Shown: positions 1,649-11,547, numbered from the stretch's first letter. The stretch: DNA of 11,547 bases from a virus (IMGVR_UViG_2529292734_000012); one strand, 5' to 3'. The notes: a model not told the origin generated them from the letters alone. Made by a program: numbers and translations.

Positions 1649-1694
1649 CAGTCGCCGGATTGAATCGGTAAGATAGGGTTATAACCGGATTTTT

Positions 1695-1766
1695 TAGCTA
1701 CACGTTTAGCTATACGGTCCAGCGTGTAGCTAAAGCCGTATAGCTACGACCAGGCATATAGCTACC
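1695..1766. promoter_or_regulatory. Array of TAGCTA(C/T)ACG-type direct and inverted repeats upstream of the integrase gene (candidate integrase arm sites or int operator)
   Basis: tagctacacg (1695-1704), tagctatacg (1707-1716), cgtgtagcta (1723-1732, inverted), cgtatagcta (1737-1746, inverted), tagctacg (1741-1748), tagctacc (1759-1766). Confidence 0.5.
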
Positions 1767-1781
1767 GATGAGTAAAAAAAC

Positions 1782-3023
1782 ATGGCACGAAAAACCACCC
1801 CACTAACTATTACGGAGATCAAAAACGCACGACCAGGGGAAAAGGAATATACCCTGCAGGATGGCGGAGGATTATTTCTTCTGGTGAAGCCCTCCGGATC
1901 AAAAATCTGGCGTTTTACGTACTACCGCCCGGCAGATAAAAAACGGACTATTATCAGCCTTGGATCGCTAAATGATGTTTCCCTGTCTGATGCCAGAGAG
2001 CGACGGAATGAATACAGGTCACTCATAGCAAAGGGAACTGACCCACAGGACTACGAACGCCGGAAACGTGAAGCAGAGAGCAGGAAAAAGGGCAACACGT
2101 TCGAAAAAGTTGCCTTGGACTGGTACGAGATGAAAAAAGGCCAGAATCTGGCTTACAACACGATTAAGGATATCTGGCGATCCCTGGAAAAATACGTATT
2201 CCCGTACATCGGAAACACGCCAATAGATACCCTCACCGCTCGCCGCTTTGTTGAGATACTCACACCCATTAAAGCACGCGGCAACCTGGAAACTCTGAAA
2301 CGCGTTTTACAACGCATCAATGAAGTGATGGATTTTGCTGCCAACAGTGGGCTGATTGACATCAACACCGCCGCGAACGTCCGCAAGGCATTCCCTTCCC
2401 CCACTAAAAAGCATATGCCAACCATCCGACCGGAACAGCTACCGCAGCTAATGCACGATTTATCGGTCGCCAGCATAGAACGGCAAACCAGATTGCTAAT
2501 CGAGTGGCAACTGCTGACCGTAGCACGCCCAGCCGAAGCAGCCGCCGCACGCTGGGAAGAAATAGATCTCGATGCCGAAACATGGACGATTCCAGCCGGA
2601 CGCATGAAGATGCGCCGTGACCATGTGATCCCTCTTTGCGGTCAGGCGATGGCTGTACTGGAAACAATGAAGCCAATCAGCGCACACAGGGAACATGTTT
2701 TTCCCAGCCTTAAAAATCCAATACTGCCAATGAGCAGCCAGACCGCTAACGCTGCATTGCGCCGGATGGGATACGCTGGTGTGCTGGTGTCTCACGGATT
2801 ACGCGCCATATTCAGTACAGCAGCGAACGAGGAAGGATTCGAGCCGGACGTAATCGAGGCCGCACTCGCACACGTGGACACGAACGAGGTAAGGCGAGCA
2901 TATAACCGAAGTAACTACCTGGAAAAACGTGTAGTACTTATGCGCTGGTGGGGTGAATTTGTGGAAGCCGCAGCAACCGGAGTGACCATAGCCAGTGGTA
3001 AAAGGGGTATCCGTGCGGTGTAA
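1782..3023 (+). CDS. int: Tyrosine site-specific integrase, P4-like family (413 aa)
   Basis: Located about 200 bp downstream of a tRNA gene. N-terminal arm-binding-like region (GLFLLVKPSGSKIWRFTYY). C-terminal catalytic motifs HGLRAIFST (H-x-x-R) and RAYNRSNY (catalytic Tyr region). Confidence 0.9.
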   Translation: MARKTTPLTITEIKNARPGEKEYTLQDGGGLFLLVKPSGSKIWRFTYYRPADKKRTIISLGSLNDVSLSDARERRNEYRSLIAKGTDPQDYERRKREAESRKKGNTFEKVALDWYEMKKGQNLAYNTIKDIWRSLEKYVFPYIGNTPIDTLTARRFVEILTPIKARGNLETLKRVLQRINEVMDFAANSGLIDINTAANVRKAFPSPTKKHMPTIRPEQLPQLMHDLSVASIERQTRLLIEWQLLTVARPAEAAAARWEEIDLDAETWTIPAGRMKMRRDHVIPLCGQAMAVLETMKPISAHREHVFPSLKNPILPMSSQTANAALRRMGYAGVLVSHGLRAIFSTAANEEGFEPDVIEAALAHVDTNEVRRAYNRSNYLEKRVVLMRWWGEFVEAAATGVTIASGKRGIRAV

Positions 3024-3136: not shown

Positions 3137-3379
3137 ATGGTCTGGCACGAAAAATCATCCAATGTCTGCGGTGAAGGGCTGCAACTGGCGTTAATGGCAA
3201 ATCGTGAATTCTGGTCAACATACGATCCGGAAGACAAATCAACAGCCCCCACAAAACACGAGGTAGTCAGTTTTTTACGCTCGCGTGGCGCATCGAAAAA
3301 TCTGGCTGAAAGCATCGACAAGGTGCTGAGGCCCACCAGCCTTAAATGTGGTGGGCGACCTAAGAAGTGGAAACGGTAA
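3137..3379 (+). CDS. Hypothetical small protein (80 aa; alternative start at 3194), basic C-terminus
   Basis: ORF sits between a promoter-like element and a strong intrinsic terminator. There is no convincing Shine-Dalgarno sequence and no family was recognised. Confidence 0.35.
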   Translation: MVWHEKSSNVCGEGLQLALMANREFWSTYDPEDKSTAPTKHEVVSFLRSRGASKNLAESIDKVLRPTSLKCGGRPKKWKR

Positions 3380-3384
3380 TCACA

Positions 3385-3416
3385 ATAGCGGCCCCTTGCG
3401 GTCGCTATTTTTTTGC
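3385..3416 (+). terminator. Rho-independent terminator
   Basis: GC-rich hairpin AGCGGCC-CCTTGC-GGTCGCT followed by ATTTTTTTG. Confidence 0.65.
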
Positions 3417-3449
3417 AAAAAGAAAGCGTAATCAATGAGATAAAAAACA

Positions 3450-3484
3450 GTGAGTACCGTTTTAAAACGGTGAGTACTGTTTTT
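3450..3484. promoter_or_regulatory. Direct repeat GTGAGTAC(C/T)GTTTT x2 flanking a perfect 16-bp palindrome ACCGTTTTAAAACGGT, upstream of the AlpA-like gene
   Basis: Copies at 3450-3463 and 3470-3483; palindrome at 3456-3471. Candidate operator or activator site. Confidence 0.45.
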
Positions 3485-3548
3485 CCCGCCCTGCCCTGTT
3501 TTACCGTATTTACCACCGGAATACGCCGGATTAACGAGGTAAAACACG

Positions 3549-3755
3549 ATGGAAGTAATCAGAAAAATTCTTACCCGTCAGGAAGTAAAAAATATTCTGC
3601 GCATCAAGGCAGACAGTTCGCTACAGGACATGATCAACGCCGGAAAATTCCCGAAAGGCTTCAAAATCGGTCTGCGCCGTGTTGGCTGGTATGAAGATGA
3701 GGTGCAGGCCTGGTTGAAAGAACGCGAGGAAGAAGCGCGCGGAACGGCTGCGTAA
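3549..3755 (+). CDS. alpA: AlpA-family phage transcriptional regulator / excisionase-like HTH protein (68 aa)
   Basis: Short MerR-like HTH protein (LTRQEVKNILRIKADSSLQDMINAGKFPKGFKIGLRRVGWYEDEVQAWL) with the conserved Trp-containing C-terminus typical of AlpA/Vis proteins. GAGGT RBS. Position just after the integrase as in P4-like and PICI elements. Confidence 0.75.
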   Translation: MEVIRKILTRQEVKNILRIKADSSLQDMINAGKFPKGFKIGLRRVGWYEDEVQAWLKEREEEARGTAA

Positions 3756-5856: not shown

Positions 5857-6156
5857 ATGAAACTTAAATATTCTGGCTTAACTGCCAGTGGCAACACTCA
5901 CCCTAAATTTACGCGCGGCGATATTTACCGCGACCAGTACGGCGGCACGGTAATGATTAAGGGCGTGGAAGAACGGCGCGTAACCTACCGCCGTGAAGGT
6001 TACGAATATGATTGCGTGATGCCTGTTTATCAGTTCCGGCGTGATTTTTCTCTGGTACAGACCGCGCCGCATAACGTGTCCACCAGCAACGCCAGGGCAC
6101 GGGCAAACATCCAGAAGCTGAAAACCATGATTAACGGATTCAGGGGTAAAAAATGA
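5857..6156 (+). CDS. Hypothetical protein (99 aa), translationally coupled to the replication ATPase
   Basis: GGAGA RBS. Stop overlaps the start of the downstream gene (ATGA at 6153-6156). Confidence 0.5.
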   Translation: MKLKYSGLTASGNTHPKFTRGDIYRDQYGGTVMIKGVEERRVTYRREGYEYDCVMPVYQFRRDFSLVQTAPHNVSTSNARARANIQKLKTMINGFRGKK

Positions 6157-7559
6157 AACTGGCACCGAACGTAAAACTGTTACCGAAAGATAAACACACT
6201 GAGGCGGTTATTTTTGCGGGTGATAATGCTCACTCCTTTGCAGAACATTACATGATTGCACAGGCCAAAAAAGCAGGCGATCCCATCCCTCCGGTTTACC
6301 TGGGCCGTTATCAGTTAAGCGAACTGGACAATTTACAGATTGTTGATGAAGGACGATACAGAGCAAAGGTCATACGCGCCGGAAACCTGGACGATATGCA
6401 GATGCTGACCATTGCCACCAAACTGGCGATCGCAGGTGTCCGGGAAGCGCGGTTACTTTCAGAGAATTTCGAACTACTGGAGGACTGGAGCGAGCAACTA
6501 CCCCGACTTAAAGAAACCTGGGAACGCGGGGAAAGTCTGGTCATGAATGGCGGAAAGCGAAAAATCACACTTCCCATCTCATGGGGTTCTGAGGGATTCG
6601 ACGCGCAGCAAAGCTACGTAATTAAGGGGCTTATTCCGGCTGAATCATTATGCAGCACCTACGGGGCCAGCGGTTCTTATAAATCGTTCCTGGCTATTTC
6701 CTGGTCGTGTCATGTTGCCACAGGTATAGCATGGGGAGGCCGCAGGGTAAGTAAGGGCGCGGTTATCTATATCGCTGGCGAAGGCAGTATGGGCGTAAAA
6801 CGCCGCGTTAAGGCGTGGGAGATAACCCACGACAAGGTGGTTACGGATTTGTGCATCGTTAACGCGCCTGTCTTCCCTGCATCGCCTGACTATGTGGAGC
6901 AGGTTATCAGGACCGCCGGATTAGTGCAAGACAGAACGGGCGAAAGGGTGCGGATGATTGTCATTGACACACTGGCCCGTTGCTTTGGTGGTCATGATGA
7001 AAATGACTCCCGCGACATGGGGGCGTTTATCCAGGGGTGTGACGCGATAAAGCAGGCCACGGGGGCCACGGTTCTGGTTGTGCATCATTCCGGCAAGGAT
7101 GAGACGAAAGGGGCGCGGGGTTCCAGTGCATTCCGTGCGGCGCTTGATGCTGAGTTCCGAATCAGTCGGGAACATTCAGAGGCTACGGCGCTGGTTGCAG
7201 CATGTACGAAGATGAAGGACGCGGAGGAGCCAAAAGAAAGCGCCTACGACCTTAAGAGCGTGGAGGTATTTACGGATCCTGAGGGTGAAGAAATCGTGTC
7301 CATGGTGGTGATTGACGTTCCCCGCGCCCCTGCTGAACTGGAGCGCATAGAGGAGGCCGGGAACAAGACGGAAAATCACACGGCTTTATGGGGTTGTATC
7401 CGGTCACGTATACAGCATGGTGATAAATGCACGATCCCGCTGCTACGTGATGACATGAAAAAGCTGGGATATGACACAAAACACCTTAAACGATGGTTAG
7501 CCAAACTGGAAAAAGACGGCGTGATTTGCGTCGATGGGGATGATGTTCACCCACTGTAA
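6153..7559 (+). CDS. Replication initiator/helicase-like P-loop ATPase (RepA/AAA_25-like RecA-fold), 468 aa
   Basis: Deviant Walker A GASGSYKS, Walker B-like MIVIDTLARCF, and VLVVHHSGKDETKGARGSSAF typical of RepA/AAA_25-type ATPases. Followed immediately by an iteron array. Confidence 0.75.
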   Translation: MKLAPNVKLLPKDKHTEAVIFAGDNAHSFAEHYMIAQAKKAGDPIPPVYLGRYQLSELDNLQIVDEGRYRAKVIRAGNLDDMQMLTIATKLAIAGVREARLLSENFELLEDWSEQLPRLKETWERGESLVMNGGKRKITLPISWGSEGFDAQQSYVIKGLIPAESLCSTYGASGSYKSFLAISWSCHVATGIAWGGRRVSKGAVIYIAGEGSMGVKRRVKAWEITHDKVVTDLCIVNAPVFPASPDYVEQVIRTAGLVQDRTGERVRMIVIDTLARCFGGHDENDSRDMGAFIQGCDAIKQATGATVLVVHHSGKDETKGARGSSAFRAALDAEFRISREHSEATALVAACTKMKDAEEPKESAYDLKSVEVFTDPEGEEIVSMVVIDVPRAPAELERIEEAGNKTENHTALWGCIRSRIQHGDKCTIPLLRDDMKKLGYDTKHLKRWLAKLEKDGVICVDGDDVHPL

Positions 7560-7761: not shown

Positions 7762-8013
7762 ATGACCAGAAAAACCAGAGATAAGACAGCACCAAAATAT
7801 CGCGCATTAGACATGACAGAGCACGCCTTAAAGGTGGCAATCAGAACGATAGACCGCCACGCCGGAGAAGGATACGCGAAAGCACATCCCGAACTGATAA
7901 GCGCATTCATGACCACGACGGCGGCAAATTTTGCCACGCTGACAGAGCGGGAGATTGCCGAAGCGGAACAGGTAACAACAATCAACGTTAAAACCGGAGA
8001 GGTGGAATCATGA
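7762..8013 (+). CDS. Hypothetical protein (83 aa)
   Basis: ATG at 7762 preceded by AGGTGGG. The longer frame from 7630 would run through the iterons and is rejected. Stop overlaps the SSB start (ATGA). Confidence 0.45.
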   Translation: MTRKTRDKTAPKYRALDMTEHALKVAIRTIDRHAGEGYAKAHPELISAFMTTTAANFATLTEREIAEAEQVTTINVKTGEVES

Positions 8014-8432
8014 CAGCACAGATAGCGGCTTACGGGCGGCTGGTGGCTGACCCGCAGTTAAAGACCACTAGCAAAGGGACACAAATGGCGATGGCGAGTA
8101 TGGCGGTTCCCCTGCCGTGCAGCCAGGCAGATGACGGAACGGCGACGATGTGGTTATCTGTCCTGGCGTTTGGCAGACAGGCCGACGCACTGGCAAAACA
8201 CCACAAAGGCGAACTGGTGAGCGTGGCGGGTAACATGCAGGTGAGCCAGTGGACAGGCCAGAACGGGGAAACGCGGCAGGGCTGGCAGGTTATTGCAGAC
8301 AGCGTAATCAGTGCGCGAACGGCGCGACCGGGCGGCAAAAAAGGTCAACAGGGCCAGGCTACTGACGCGCTGAACAGGGCAAAACAACAGGCGGGAAATG
8401 ATGATCCGTACGGGGATAACATACCGTTTTAA
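8010..8432 (+). CDS. ssb: Single-stranded DNA-binding protein (SSB-like, 140 aa)
   Basis: OB-fold-like N-terminal region and an acidic C-terminal tail ending DDPYGDNIPF, resembling the SSB DDDIPF tail. GGAGAGGTGG RBS. Confidence 0.7.
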   Translation: MTAQIAAYGRLVADPQLKTTSKGTQMAMASMAVPLPCSQADDGTATMWLSVLAFGRQADALAKHHKGELVSVAGNMQVSQWTGQNGETRQGWQVIADSVISARTARPGGKKGQQGQATDALNRAKQQAGNDDPYGDNIPF

Positions 8433-8704: not shown

Positions 8705-9745
8705 ATGAGTGATTTATATTCGCCAGCCATGTTAATACAGGTTGTTAATGCCGAAGATATTCAATGGCAGATTAATTCTTTATTTATAAACCTGTTTTTT
8801 AAGCGAGTCGTTACATTTGAGACGCGGGATATTGCGCTTGATATTATTGACGATCCAGACATCCCGATGGCTGCATTTTGTTCCCCTATGGTTGGTAGTA
8901 AAGTCTCACGCGATGAAGGCTACGAATCAAAAGTAATTCGCCCTGGCTATATGAAGCCAAAAAGTAGTATCGACCCAAATAAAATAGCCGTTCGTCAACC
9001 AGGCGTATCACCTGAACAATTCAATGCATATTCATCACGCAGTTTCAAAATAAAGCGAGCGTTAGTAAGACAAGCGCAGGCAATTCGTGCGCGTATTGAG
9101 TGGCTTGCTGTTCAGGCGGTTACAACGGGGAAAAATATCATTGAAGGCGATGGAATTGAACGTTATGAACTGGACTGGAATATAAAACCACAAAATATTA
9201 TCACGCAGTCCGGCGGCACGGAGTGGAGCGGTAGAGATTTATCAACATTTGATCCAAACGATGACATCGAAGAGTACGCAGAAATCAGCGAAGGTACTAC
9301 AAATATCATCGTAATGGGCCGCAACGTATGGAAAAAATACCGCGCCTTTAAAGCAGTAAAAGATTGCCTTGATACTCGACGGGGATCTAATTCCGTTCTT
9401 GAAACGGCCCTGAAAAATCTTGGGGATTCTGTAAGCTTCAAGGGTTACGTTGGCGATGTTGCTATTGTGGTATATAGCGGACGTTATACCGACGAGGACG
9501 GCAAAGAAAAATATTTCCTTGATCCTGATTTGATGGTGCTTGGCAACACATCATTACAGGGCATCGTTGCCTACGGTGGCATTCAGGATCCTGAGTTAAT
9601 CAGAATGGGGCTGACTAAAGCCGAACTTGCGCCGAAAAATTACATCGTACCAGGTGATCCGGCTATTGAATATGTGCAGACGCACAGCGCACCGCAACCA
9701 ATACCGGCCCGCATCAATCGTTTTGTTACCGTTCGCATTGGTTAA
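8705..9745 (+). CDS. Phage major capsid protein, lambda gpE family (346 aa)
   Basis: Long collinear similarity to lambda gpE as I recall it: ITQSGGTEWS, FKAVK..LDTRRGSNS.LETA, GDVAIVVYSG, MVLGNT, YGGIQD. Similar length (346 vs 341 aa). AAGAGG RBS. Confidence 0.9.
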   Translation: MSDLYSPAMLIQVVNAEDIQWQINSLFINLFFKRVVTFETRDIALDIIDDPDIPMAAFCSPMVGSKVSRDEGYESKVIRPGYMKPKSSIDPNKIAVRQPGVSPEQFNAYSSRSFKIKRALVRQAQAIRARIEWLAVQAVTTGKNIIEGDGIERYELDWNIKPQNIITQSGGTEWSGRDLSTFDPNDDIEEYAEISEGTTNIIVMGRNVWKKYRAFKAVKDCLDTRRGSNSVLETALKNLGDSVSFKGYVGDVAIVVYSGRYTDEDGKEKYFLDPDLMVLGNTSLQGIVAYGGIQDPELIRMGLTKAELAPKNYIVPGDPAIEYVQTHSAPQPIPARINRFVTVRIG

Positions 9746-9754
9746 GGGGGAGCA

Positions 9755-10096
9755 ATGGCTACTCATTACACTGAACTCATGGCTGGCACTGAAGCACTGG
9801 TTACTACGTTGGGGATATTTTCAGCTAATAAAGGGGTAATTCCTGCATTTACGCCACTGATGCAAGAAGATGCAACTGGTGCACTGGTGGTATGGGATGG
9901 AACGAGCGCAGGCAAAGCTGTTTATGTTTCCGCTGTACAAATCGATACAGCGACAAAAACGCAGGCTCAGGTTTATAAAACCGGCGTCTTAAATGTTGAT
10001 GCTCTGAACTGGCCTGAGTCTGTAACACAACTATCAGCAAAAGTTGCTGCGTTTGTTGGCTCAGGTATTTCTGTTCAGCCGCTGGCACGTGTGTGA
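9755..10096 (+). CDS. Head decoration protein, lambda gpD family (113 aa)
   Basis: AFTPLMQEDATGALVVWDGTSAGKAV...YKTGVLNVDALNWPE...AFVGSGISV parallels lambda gpD ([26 protein letters not shown]...YKSGTFRYEDVLWPE...AFAGTAISIV). Confidence 0.85.
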   Translation: MATHYTELMAGTEALVTTLGIFSANKGVIPAFTPLMQEDATGALVVWDGTSAGKAVYVSAVQIDTATKTQAQVYKTGVLNVDALNWPESVTQLSAKVAAFVGSGISVQPLARV

Positions 10097-10105
10097 GGTA
10101 CGAGA

Positions 10106-10423
10106 ATGATTGAAAGAGATAGTCAGCTACGAGAGCTATTAGATATCGATGACAAAATGAGTTTAAGCGAGCGCCTTGTTGATATGGATCAGGTAGTGGA
10201 GCTTACAACCCTTAGCCGTCGCACATTGCTAAACCTTGAGGCTCGCGGAGAGTTCCCCGAACGCGTACAGGTTACGAAAGGGCGCAAGGCATGGTATTTA
10301 AGCGAGGTTGTTGCGTGGATTAACAACATTCCGCGCGCATCAAATTATTGCCTTGTTCCCACCCCGAAAAACCTGATGCGGCGTTATGCCTCAAGATTGA
10401 ACGCGCCAGGCGTAATGCCCTGA
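10106..10423 (+). CDS. HTH DNA-binding protein (AlpA/MerR-like HTH_17 type), 105 aa
   Basis: VVELTTLSRRTLLNLEARGEFPERVQVTKGRKAWYLSEVVAWI resembles the AlpA/excisionase-type HTH. GAGGT RBS. Lies between the decoration gene and cos. Confidence 0.55.
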   Translation: MIERDSQLRELLDIDDKMSLSERLVDMDQVVELTTLSRRTLLNLEARGEFPERVQVTKGRKAWYLSEVVAWINNIPRASNYCLVPTPKNLMRRYASRLNAPGVMP

Positions 10424-10489
10424 AAGGACGCAATAAGTTGATTGGTTGATGAAATTAGGGCCCGTTCTGGCTGGCGGGTCCTTTCCGGC

Positions 10490-10545
10490 GATCCGGCAGG
10501 CTACGGGGCGGCGACCTTGCGGTTTTTCGCTATTTATGAGCTTTT
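10490..10545. other. Lambda-type cos site (cosN cohesive-end sequence GGGCGGCGACCT at 10506-10517, plus start of cosB)
   Basis: ctACGGGGCGGCGACCTtGCGGtTTTTCGCTATTTATGAg matches the lambda left-end/cosN sequence GGGCGGCGACCTCGCGGGTTTTCGCTATTTATGAAAA (from memory) with a few substitutions. Sits about 130 bp upstream of a Nu1-like gene, as in lambda. Confidence 0.7.
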
Positions 10546-10548
10546 TCA

Positions 10549-10577
10549 GGGTGGTGGTGGTGGTTTTGTTGTTTGTT
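10549..10577. repeat. Short simple-sequence repeat (GGT)5 followed by a T/G-rich (TTG)n-like tract inside the cosB-equivalent region
   Basis: GGGTGGTGGTGGTGGTTTTGTTGTTTGTT. Confidence 0.6.
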
Positions 10578-10649
10578 CTATCTCCATGAATGAAAAGGGA
10601 AGATAACACCAACACACCAACCTGAAACCTTAACTAAGTGGGGATATTG

Positions 10650-11192
10650 ATGAAATCGCACCTGATGAACAAAAAAACTATGGCGCAAAGCTGCCGCGTA
10701 AGTGCGACAGCGTTCGACAAGTGGGGAGTGACTCCCGTTGAGCGTAAAGGCCGTGAGGCGTTTTATGATGTTGCTAGCGTGATAGACAATAGGGTTAACA
10801 ATGCAATTAACCAACTTACAAACGACAAAGGCGAGATTGATGATGATGAACTTTTACGCGTAAGAATCAGATTAATGACGGCCCAGGCGGAAGCGCAGGA
10901 ACTTAAAAACGAGCGCGAACGCGGCGAGGTGATTGATACAAAGTTTTGCATCTACGCGATTTCAAAGCTGGCACAACAAATTTCTTCAATCATGGACAGC
11001 CTCCCGCTCACAATGCAAAGGCGCTTTCCCGATATAAGGCCGTATATGCTGGATGAACTAAAAAGGGAAATAGTCAAAGCATGTAACGCATGTGCAAGAC
11101 TTGACGAAAACCTGCCACAGATACTGGCTGATTACCTGATGGAAACTACCGGAAACGTGCCTGAGAAGTTGCTACAGAACAAAGGCGAGTAA
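10650..11192 (+). CDS. Terminase small subunit, lambda Nu1-like (start uncertain: 10638 GTG, 10650 ATG or 10665 ATG)
   Basis: LMTAQAEAQELKNERERGEVIDTKFCIYAISKLAQQISSIMDSLPLTMQRRFPDI parallels lambda Nu1 LTRAQADAQELKNARDSAEVVETAFCTFVLSRIAGEIASILDGLPLSVQRRFPEL. The N-terminal DNA-binding region is more divergent. Confidence 0.8.
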   Translation: MKSHLMNKKTMAQSCRVSATAFDKWGVTPVERKGREAFYDVASVIDNRVNNAINQLTNDKGEIDDDELLRVRIRLMTAQAEAQELKNERERGEVIDTKFCIYAISKLAQQISSIMDSLPLTMQRRFPDIRPYMLDELKREIVKACNACARLDENLPQILADYLMETTGNVPEKLLQNKGE

Positions 11193-11265
11193 CCGCCGCC
11201 CCGTAACGGGCCATAATTCCAGGAAGGACCCGACGACACCAGGCTATCAGAACGATGAGGGCACA

Positions 11266-11547
11266 ATGACTGAAGCCGAACTACTGGGATTAATCCGCCG
11301 CGTCGTCGGAATCAGCCAGCAGCATGACGAACAGGCCACACAGCCGGACAGCGTGACCGCTGAAAATTATGTGCGTGTTGTTGCTGAGGTGATGCGCCGT
11401 GATGGTATTGAGCTTAACGGCGTGGATATGCGCAACATACGAACAAGAGTCCTTGAGTTGCTGGCATACCGTCGCCGTTCTCAACAACGGAGGGAGAGCG
11501 CGAAAAATACTTACCAGTGGAAGAAGCCGGAACGGTTGCGGCGGTAG
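11266..11547 (+). CDS. Hypothetical protein (93 aa), Arg-rich C-terminus; stop codon is the last three bases of the window
   Basis: ATG preceded by GAGGG. Occupies the position where lambda has gene A but shows no resemblance to gpA. Confidence 0.4.
   Translation: MTEAELLGLIRRVVGISQQHDEQATQPDSVTAENYVRVVAEVMRRDGIELNGVDMRNIRTRVLELLAYRRRSQQRRESAKNTYQWKKPERLRR

Follow-up and report, generated by a model that had tools for sequence, protein, structure and literature searches.

A small arginine-rich ORF at the end of a cos-type island

The stretch of DNA analysed here (the window) comprises 11,547 nucleotides of the viral record IMGVR_UViG_2529292734_000012. It ends with a small ORF downstream of a Nu1-like terminase gene, and contains the following features:

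52-1422: yejM, 3' part
1497-1573: tRNA-Pro(GGG)
1691-1716, plus strand: attL copy of a 26-nt direct repeat, downstream of tRNA-Pro
1782-3023, plus strand: P4-type tyrosine integrase (Pfam Arm-DNA-bind_3, Phage_int_M and Phage_integrase)
3549-3755: AlpA (canonical alpA)
6153-7559: RepA/AAA_25 helicase
8010-8432: SSB
8705-9745, plus strand: lambda-E-like major capsid homolog
9755-10096, plus strand: gpD-like decoration homolog
10106-10423: second AlpA-like HTH gene, 105 aa (Pfam Phage_AlpA 7e-08, phrog_2790)
10476-10580, plus strand: cos1, with cosQ-like GGGTCCTTTCC (10476-10486) and cosN GGGCGGCGACCT (10506-10517), then the cosB region
10638-11192, plus strand: Nu1-like TerS (Pfam Phage_Nu1 E=2.9e-24; phrog_57 1.2e-52)
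11190-11240, minus strand: remnant of an inverted cos2; what is left comprises cosQ-like GGGTCCTTCC and the initial 8 nt of cosN
11257-11261, plus strand: Shine-Dalgarno sequence GAGGG, 4 nt before the ATG of the 93-aa ORF, read directly from the sequence
11266-11547, plus strand: arginine-rich 93-aa ORF, with ATG start and a TAG stop that is the end of the window

The same DNA, at 99.9-100% identity, is found in complete E. coli chromosomes. The integrase, AlpA, replication module, capsid-morphogenesis genes, terS and att repeats, all within about 10 kb, make up the gene set of a PICI, for which the published proteobacterial architecture is int, alpA, pri-rep, capsid morphogenesis and terS. 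Neither Pfam searches nor the complete-genome maps revealed a TerL, portal, tail or lysis gene. By its gene content, the island is a classical cos-type E. coli PICI, not a capsid-forming one. Although it encodes E-like capsid and gpD-like decoration homologs, it lacks a portal, a protease and a scaffold; a sister island (L004) has a protease-capsid fusion instead. The position of the second AlpA-like gene, between the decoration gene and cos1, is taken in other islands by an unrelated 137-aa c1501-like gene. For EcCICFT073, the capsid and decoration homologs (c1499 and c1500) have been reported to be unnecessary for interference.

The lambda cohesive-end sequence in cosN occurs only once in the window, where 0.05 occurrences are expected by chance. 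The DNA around cosQ and cosN is about 90% identical to that of lambdoid phages, including phage 21. The cosB region right after cosN is island-specific, with GGT/GTT-rich repeats, and is common to other TerS-type PICIs. A 69-aa "hypothetical protein" annotated by RefSeq overlaps cosQ, cosN and cosB upstream of terS (window 10442-10606; 10498-10707 in the L092 locus); this call over the cos site is probably spurious.

TerS itself, which RefSeq starts at the ATG at 10650 to give 180 aa, is 35% identical to the Nu1 protein of a lambda-type prophage (E=6e-29), and had no PDB match in the search for RppA and RppC. The resemblance to Nu1 is strongest in the central and C-terminal part, and it is this part of Nu1 that contacts gpA. 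Since the island has its own TerS and cosB but no TerL, it must use the gpA-type TerL of a lambdoid helper. The lambda-like cosN and cosQ, together with the Nu1-like C-terminal half of TerS, would recruit this helper enzyme, and TerS would read the island's own cosB. The initial annotation had proposed that the element relies on the large terminase of its helper, and the TerL-less complete islands, the lambda-type cosQ and cosN and the island's own cosB and TerS all support this. From the same cos features and TerS we also infer helper-driven induction, packaging and transfer of the island. Resident prophages failed to mobilise the TerS-encoding E. coli PICIs on which this was tried in 2018. 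The dependence of TerS-encoding, TerL-less cos PICIs on helper TerL is established PICI biology, and this very island is found in many sequenced E. coli.

Sequence and conservation of the small ORF

The protein encoded by the small ORF contains 16 arginine residues (17.2%, compared with 1-11% in the other island proteins), has a pI of 10.5 and carries a net charge of +9 over its last 27 residues. The phrog_1561 profile, which has 93 positions, covers residues 1-93 (E=1.2e-56), and this full-length match together with the C-terminal motif places the protein in the phrog_1561 family. Its relatives form about 1,000 clusters at 90% identity, nearly all of them 93 aa long. Six divergent copies gave a dN/dS of about 0.21 for the 93-aa frame. 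In the same copies, dN/dS was 1.4-1.8 in four of the other five frames and 0.27 in one antisense frame, the latter presumably an echo of the constraint on the sense frame. Third codon positions hold 51 of the 93 variable sites. Because of the profile match, the many clusters of conserved length and the low dN/dS, we regard the ORF as a genuine gene under purifying selection and not as a chance ORF.

Conservation is strongest at the carboxyterminal end. Even family members that are 44-48% identical keep the motif Y-x-W-K-K-P-E-R-L-R-R without change or almost so, and the conserved core, the C-terminal 60 aa or so, corresponds to phrog_7271. The arginine-rich stretch that precedes the motif (residues 69-76), which we take to resemble the arginine-rich motif of lambda N, is variable within the family, and a lambda N-like motif was rejected on this ground. 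Searches with the protein gave no sequence match in Pfam, NCBIfam or PDB, and an exhaustive search of representatives returned only 41 matches (at the 50% identity level), which were close relatives or fragments. Matches to eukaryotic SEA and ankyrin repeat proteins were discarded as repeat-inflated.

The DNA beyond the window edge

According to the initial annotation, the small ORF ends exactly at the edge of the window. The stop codon is indeed the last thing in the record, but the coincidence is a trimming artefact, as complete genomes continue beyond it. Among 88 related loci, 25 (most of them IMG/VR provirus calls) likewise end at exactly this stop codon; the reason is technical, in that trimming sets the edge of a provirus at the final gene called. 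In the complete genomes of strains GTEN_23 (L001) and 504239 (L092), the 93-aa ORF is followed by about 1.2 kb without a long ORF and then by yejO, a core gene on the opposite strand past the island end. The island of strain 504239 is of the same type as that in the window and encodes an identical 93-aa protein, and TerL is absent from the whole island in both of these genomes with an identical ORF. The attR copy of the 26-nt repeat lies about 1.0 kb past the ORF and the window edge (L001 14452-14477). The DNA downstream of the ORF gave no Rfam match above threshold, and contains no conserved block common to islands with different att sites.

Distribution and genomic neighbourhood

The small gene was found in 1,572 (29%) of the 5,426 complete E. 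coli genomes, with up to six copies in a genome. No member of the family lies outside Enterobacteriaceae (41 representatives at 50% identity); the Citrobacter branch is its most divergent part, and a scan of GTDB species found Shigella and Cedecea loci only. Among 50,697 phage records searched with tblastn there was a single match, itself a cf-PICI-like segment. In every locus examined, the small gene is the last gene of the island, and 0.5-1.4 kb without long ORFs separate it from core genes or from the rest of an interrupted prophage gene. The gene immediately upstream differs between the 89 loci as follows:

Nu1-like TerS: 52 of 89 loci
RppA-like: 12 of 89 loci
553-aa TerL: at least 12 of 89 loci
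protease-capsid fusion: 2 of 89 loci
others: a few of the 89 loci

The 553-aa satellite TerL matches the TerL_ATPase (1e-25), TerL_nuclease (6.6e-51) and phrog_9 (5.8e-179) profiles. The small gene is thus the terminal gene of PICIs and cf-PICIs alike, directly after the packaging-initiation genes.

Copies about 92% identical to the window ORF belong to PICIs that are inserted in the portal or capsid gene of lambda-like prophages (L021, L038, L039, L046, L062, L064-L066, L068, L070, L071, L074, L075 and L079-L081). The interrupted portal gene resumes at gpB residue ~270-274, the capsid gene (L064) at residue 85, and homologs of C, D, E and FI follow past the interrupted gene, 0.5-5 kb downstream of the small ORF. 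These islands look like the helper-embedded PICIs of PMC10111431. In an island of Citrobacter sp. S-77 (L009 5597-7985), the small gene follows a 153-aa protein without detectable family. Two more proteins are encoded farther upstream, one of 174 aa in which nothing but an N-terminal TerS/Cox-like HTH is recognisable, and one of 345 aa that matches a "baseplate hub" PHROG. This island may use another packaging strategy.

The small gene in capsid-forming islands

The cf-PICI EcCIEDL933 has the order HNH, 60-aa ORF, TerS (P27), TerL, 93-aa gene, non-coding DNA and phoQ. Its 93-aa gene (product WP_000133425.1) is about 83% identical to the window ORF at the nucleotide level. It belongs to the same small-gene family and is likewise the last gene before non-coding DNA and phoQ. 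In contrast to the window, this satellite encodes a P27-type TerS and a TerL with TerL_ATPase and nuclease domains, and builds its own capsids. The gap between TerL and the small gene is 13 nt in the cf-PICIs of E. coli and Shigella.

The cf-PICI paper reports that all mutants of the packaging module abolished transfer, except for "hypothetical gene 1792", for which transfer was severely reduced. Gene counting puts this locus tag not at a member of the 93-aa family, but most likely at the 60-aa ORF between HNH and terS (L091 12159-12341), which RefSeq added only in a later annotation round (RS34035). The 93-aa gene would by the same counting be EDL933_1795. The counting was calibrated on EDL933_1785, whose product is of 9 kDa and which is preceded by 406 nt of intergenic DNA if pchE is left unannotated; it matches L091 7608-7832, where the gap is 407 nt.

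The single match among the phage records lies in Klebsiella phage P12620-1 (PQ569648.1, ~91.0-94.4 kb; L002 4310-7733), a cf-PICI-like segment in a 106-kb record. An unannotated 65-aa short form of the small protein overlaps the stop codon of a 553-aa TerL by 4 nt, with a P4-type integrase about 340 bp further on in the same orientation. This is the gene order that would be expected of an excised circle. The record may be a chimera, or it may represent a phage carrying a satellite.

Relation to the large terminase

What the small ORF has in common with lambda gpA is its place alone, behind a Nu1-like gene and on the downstream side of a lambda-like cos. The two proteins differ in length (~640 versus 93 aa), and the ATPase/nuclease domain is not found in the small one. 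The initial annotation had described the ORF as arginine-rich and without similarity to gpA, and BLASTP, Pfam/NCBIfam and hhalign searches bear this out. BLASTP with a 642-aa lambda-type (gpA-type) TerL reached E=9 only, and hhalign of the 93-aa protein against the N-terminal 120 aa of lambda-type TerL gave a probability of 0.1%. There was no match to the large terminase profiles of Pfam/NCBIfam (Terminase_GpA, or TerL_ATPase plus TerL_nuclease, as in proteins of ~550-640 aa); with the same profile tool, real TerLs scored 1e-25 to 1e-53. A BLAST fragment that aligns RESAKNTYQWK with KESSYTPGRWE (gpA residues 42-52) at E=13 was considered as a mimic of the gpA N-terminus, and rejected because it is not conserved within the family and because of the hhalign result.

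The position of the ORF, the same as that of gpA in lambda, is all that would suggest either a non-functional chance ORF or a decayed TerL gene of which a remnant or a frameshifted start is left. Against this reading stand the lack of TerL similarity by BLASTP, HMM or profile comparison, the length of 93 aa kept in about 1,000 clusters at a dN/dS of 0.21, and the intact TerL directly upstream of the small gene in cf-PICIs. Moreover, neither a split or frameshifted TerL nor a separate TerL gene follows in the complete genomes, since there is no TerL-sized ORF in the 1.0-1.2 kb downstream and then come attR and yejO. We therefore consider the reading refuted, with a residual probability close to nil. 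Very probably, the 93-aa ORF is neither a fragment nor a replacement of TerL.

The view that the ORF sits where a large terminase gene would be expected does not hold up, since the same gene also follows Rpp or the satellite's own TerL. The presence of the small gene is hence independent of whether the upstream gene is TerS, Rpp or TerL, and independent of TerL coding.

cos sites and exchange of the packaging-specificity gene

In the PICIs of O157:H7 and in EcCICFT073, an intact second, inverted cosN lies about 65 nt upstream of the ATG of the small ORF (the inverted pairs are at 8056-8069/8925-8938 in L003 and at 2557-2570/3298-3311 in L006). This second cosN of these islands is the published cos2. 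In the window, the cosN of cos2 is broken at GGGCGGCG|GTTA and abuts the TerS stop codon. The two cos sites constitute an inverted repeat of about 80 bp, made up of cosQ, cosN and the first part of cosB, with nothing but terS or rppA between its arms. This arrangement and the break at the TerS stop codon suggest that the packaging-specificity gene may be swapped as a cassette between conserved flanks. Such cassette exchange would place the same small gene behind upstream genes as unrelated as TerS and Rpp, between which we found no sequence similarity. A functional tie of the small gene to cos2 was considered and rejected: the gene is intact next to the truncated cos2 of the window, and in cf-PICIs, which have no cos2.

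Published assays of the EcCICFT073 ortholog

EcCICFT073, the prototype Gram-negative PICI (Fillol-Salom et al., 2018, 2019), ends with genes for capsid (c1499), decoration (c1500), a hypothetical protein, RppA and a 93-aa ORF, followed by phoQ. The 144-aa protein of CFT073 is RppA, as judged by its match to RppC (PDB 6hlk, E=5e-31), and the product of the 93-aa ORF (c1505) is 78% identical to that of the window over all 93 residues. The two islands agree in the terminal position of the small gene, in the upstream cosQ-side sequence and in the PHROG. They differ in the upstream gene, which is Rpp and redirects the helper's TerS in EcCICFT073 whereas the window has a complete Nu1-like TerS, and in cos2, which is intact there and truncated in the window.

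The position of c1505 follows from the supplementary primers of Fillol-Salom et al. (2019), which we mapped onto the CFT073 sequence. The insert of pBAD18-c1505 corresponds to L006 3317-3690 and spans the complete ORF (3374-3655). In the c1504-07::cat allele, the segment L006 3104-4001 is replaced, so that both the 93-aa ORF and cos2 are deleted. Lambda plaquing was reduced by c1503 (rppA) only and by no other cloned gene, pBAD18-c1505 included, and the c1504-07::cat island served as the "WT" of the lambda and phi80 transfer assays (Fillol-Salom et al., 2019). A later paper again calls this island "wt" (JP13413). Because the c1504-07::cat island is transferable, c1505 is dispensable for induction, packaging, transfer and establishment with lambda and phi80. 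Deletion of cos2 alone raised transfer according to published data, and since cos2 is deleted in c1504-07::cat too, a modest negative effect of c1505 loss could be masked.

These assays bear on the suggestion of the initial annotation that the small protein might be a further packaging or interference factor. An interference factor would block helper packaging, for instance via the Nu1 or gpA of the helper. Its gene would be in the right place, in the module that holds the PICI interference genes, and one can speculate that the basic tail could contact the acidic C-terminus of Nu1-type proteins. However, pBAD18-c1505 did not reduce lambda plaques, and c1505 expressed alone is thus no lambda-interference factor. 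Moreover, EcCIEDL933 has the gene and yet does not, according to published work, interfere with its helpers HK106 and HK446, and the 93-aa protein has no similarity to the gpA N-terminus or to Rpp. Like Rpp of PICIs, Ppi of SaPIs and lambda gpFI, it is small and its gene lies among the terminase genes or adjoins them, but it had no PDB match to RppA/RppC (6hlk/6hn7), its hhalign probability against Rpp was 0.07%, and unlike Rpp and Ppi it caused no interference phenotype when c1505 was overexpressed. We regard interference as largely refuted for lambda and as quite improbable overall. The transfer of the deletion island likewise lends no support to an essential role in packaging.

Predicted structure and possible functions

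The 93-aa protein was modelled with AlphaFold2 from an alignment of 29 sequences including the Citrobacter branch (mean pLDDT 72.5). The model has a helix (residues 3-14), a disordered acidic, Gln-rich linker (16-24), a hairpin of two helices (28-45 and 52-82, pLDDT 85-90) and a basic tail. This succession of an N-terminal segment, a flexible linker and a C-terminal domain is presumably gpFI-like. Foldseek searches of PDB and BFVD with the model returned nothing significant (best E ~0.4), and hhalign found no similarity of the protein profile to the gpA N-terminus, Nu1-like TerS or Rpp.

What the gene is can be said with considerable confidence: the 93-aa ORF is very probably a satellite-specific terminal gene of the late or packaging operon of enterobacterial PICIs and cf-PICIs, with c1505 and the post-terL gene of EcCIEDL933 as orthologs, and not a TerL. 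What its product does is harder to say. The protein would be made together with the terminase gene product or products, and in cf-PICIs its translation would be coupled to that of TerL. The helical hairpin and the basic C-terminal tail (+9) would bind nucleic acid or a terminase-DNA complex, and the protein would assist and modulate the maturation or packaging of satellite DNA without being essential for it, rather than inhibit the helper. We put forward such binding via the tail, with a non-essential modulating effect on satellite maturation or packaging, as a tentative proposal. The combination of the above identity with a role as packaging accessory is our best explanation overall, although we give it rather less than an even chance. 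It is favoured by the nature of the gene directly upstream, a packaging-initiation gene (TerS, RppA-like or TerL). Searches of Pfam, NCBIfam, PDB, Foldseek and profiles gave no homology support for the mechanism. Contact with one specific protein is disfavoured, because two unrelated TerL families are involved, the gpA type of the helper and the TerL_ATPase/TerL_nuclease type of the satellite.

Synteny cannot separate a role in packaging from one at attP or int, because the small gene always lies after the packaging genes and before attP and int. The protein could be an accessory linked to attP or the integrase, either as recombination directionality factor (RDF), as architectural factor, or through control of int by transcription that reads through from the late operon. 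The only constant feature of its context is that it is the final gene ahead of attR, and after excision int would, by the island map, lie directly downstream of the ORF across attP, as it does in the Klebsiella order of small gene, ~340 bp and same-strand P4-type int. The protein is also small, basic and att-proximal, as many RDFs are, but in the medium-confidence model (pLDDT 72.5) it is all-helical and lacks the winged helix of RDFs of the Xis/TorI/AlpA type, and it had no match to HTH or Xis profiles. Furthermore, the islands already encode AlpA, which is required for induction according to published work. The c1504-07::cat island yields stable transductants, which means that integration occurs without the gene, and islands do not share conserved DNA directly behind the ORF. 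A role at attP or int is unlikely in our opinion, though it retains some weight.

Alternatively, the protein might be a regulator or "moron" unrelated to packaging, such as a transcription or RNA-binding factor with targets among helper or host genes, or a factor of importance only in the presence of certain helpers, competitors or defence systems. This would fit the lack of a phenotype in the two published c1505 assays despite strong purifying selection and high prevalence, a basic arginine-rich tail compatible with RNA or DNA binding, and the frequent presence of accessory genes after terS in PICIs. The tight or overlapping coupling to TerL in cf-PICIs and the invariant position are, however, unlike variable cargo, and no DNA-binding domain is detectable. 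We consider such a regulator improbable, but worth keeping in mind.

Returning to the packaging accessory, the range of upstream genes points to a possible, if doubtful, generalization, namely that the protein is a satellite-specific factor acting at a step that is common to the TerS, Rpp and TerS-plus-TerL own-capsid strategies. This step would be binding of the satellite DNA end or of the terminase-DNA complex, favouring maturation of satellite DNA, or alternatively late-operon expression coupled to attP and int after circularisation. An effect at such a step would escape the laboratory assays with lambda and phi80.

Implications

Some of what is described here was known before. In addition to the biology of TerL-less islands discussed above, the small gene had already been cloned and deleted, without phenotype, in the prototype island EcCICFT073. 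In the PICI papers that we consulted, we found no mention of one terminal gene common to TerS-type PICIs, Rpp-type PICIs, cf-PICIs and helper-embedded PICIs, and the near-absence of the small gene from phages was likewise not found reported there.

The small gene is a near-universal and satellite-specific end marker of the PICIs, cf-PICIs and helper-embedded PICIs of E. coli and Shigella. As such, it could help to delimit satellites and to distinguish prophages from them. Few other backbone genes of these well-studied elements are likewise without an assigned function. The finding of a shared terminal gene is a modest insight at the level of annotation, and an experimental lead.
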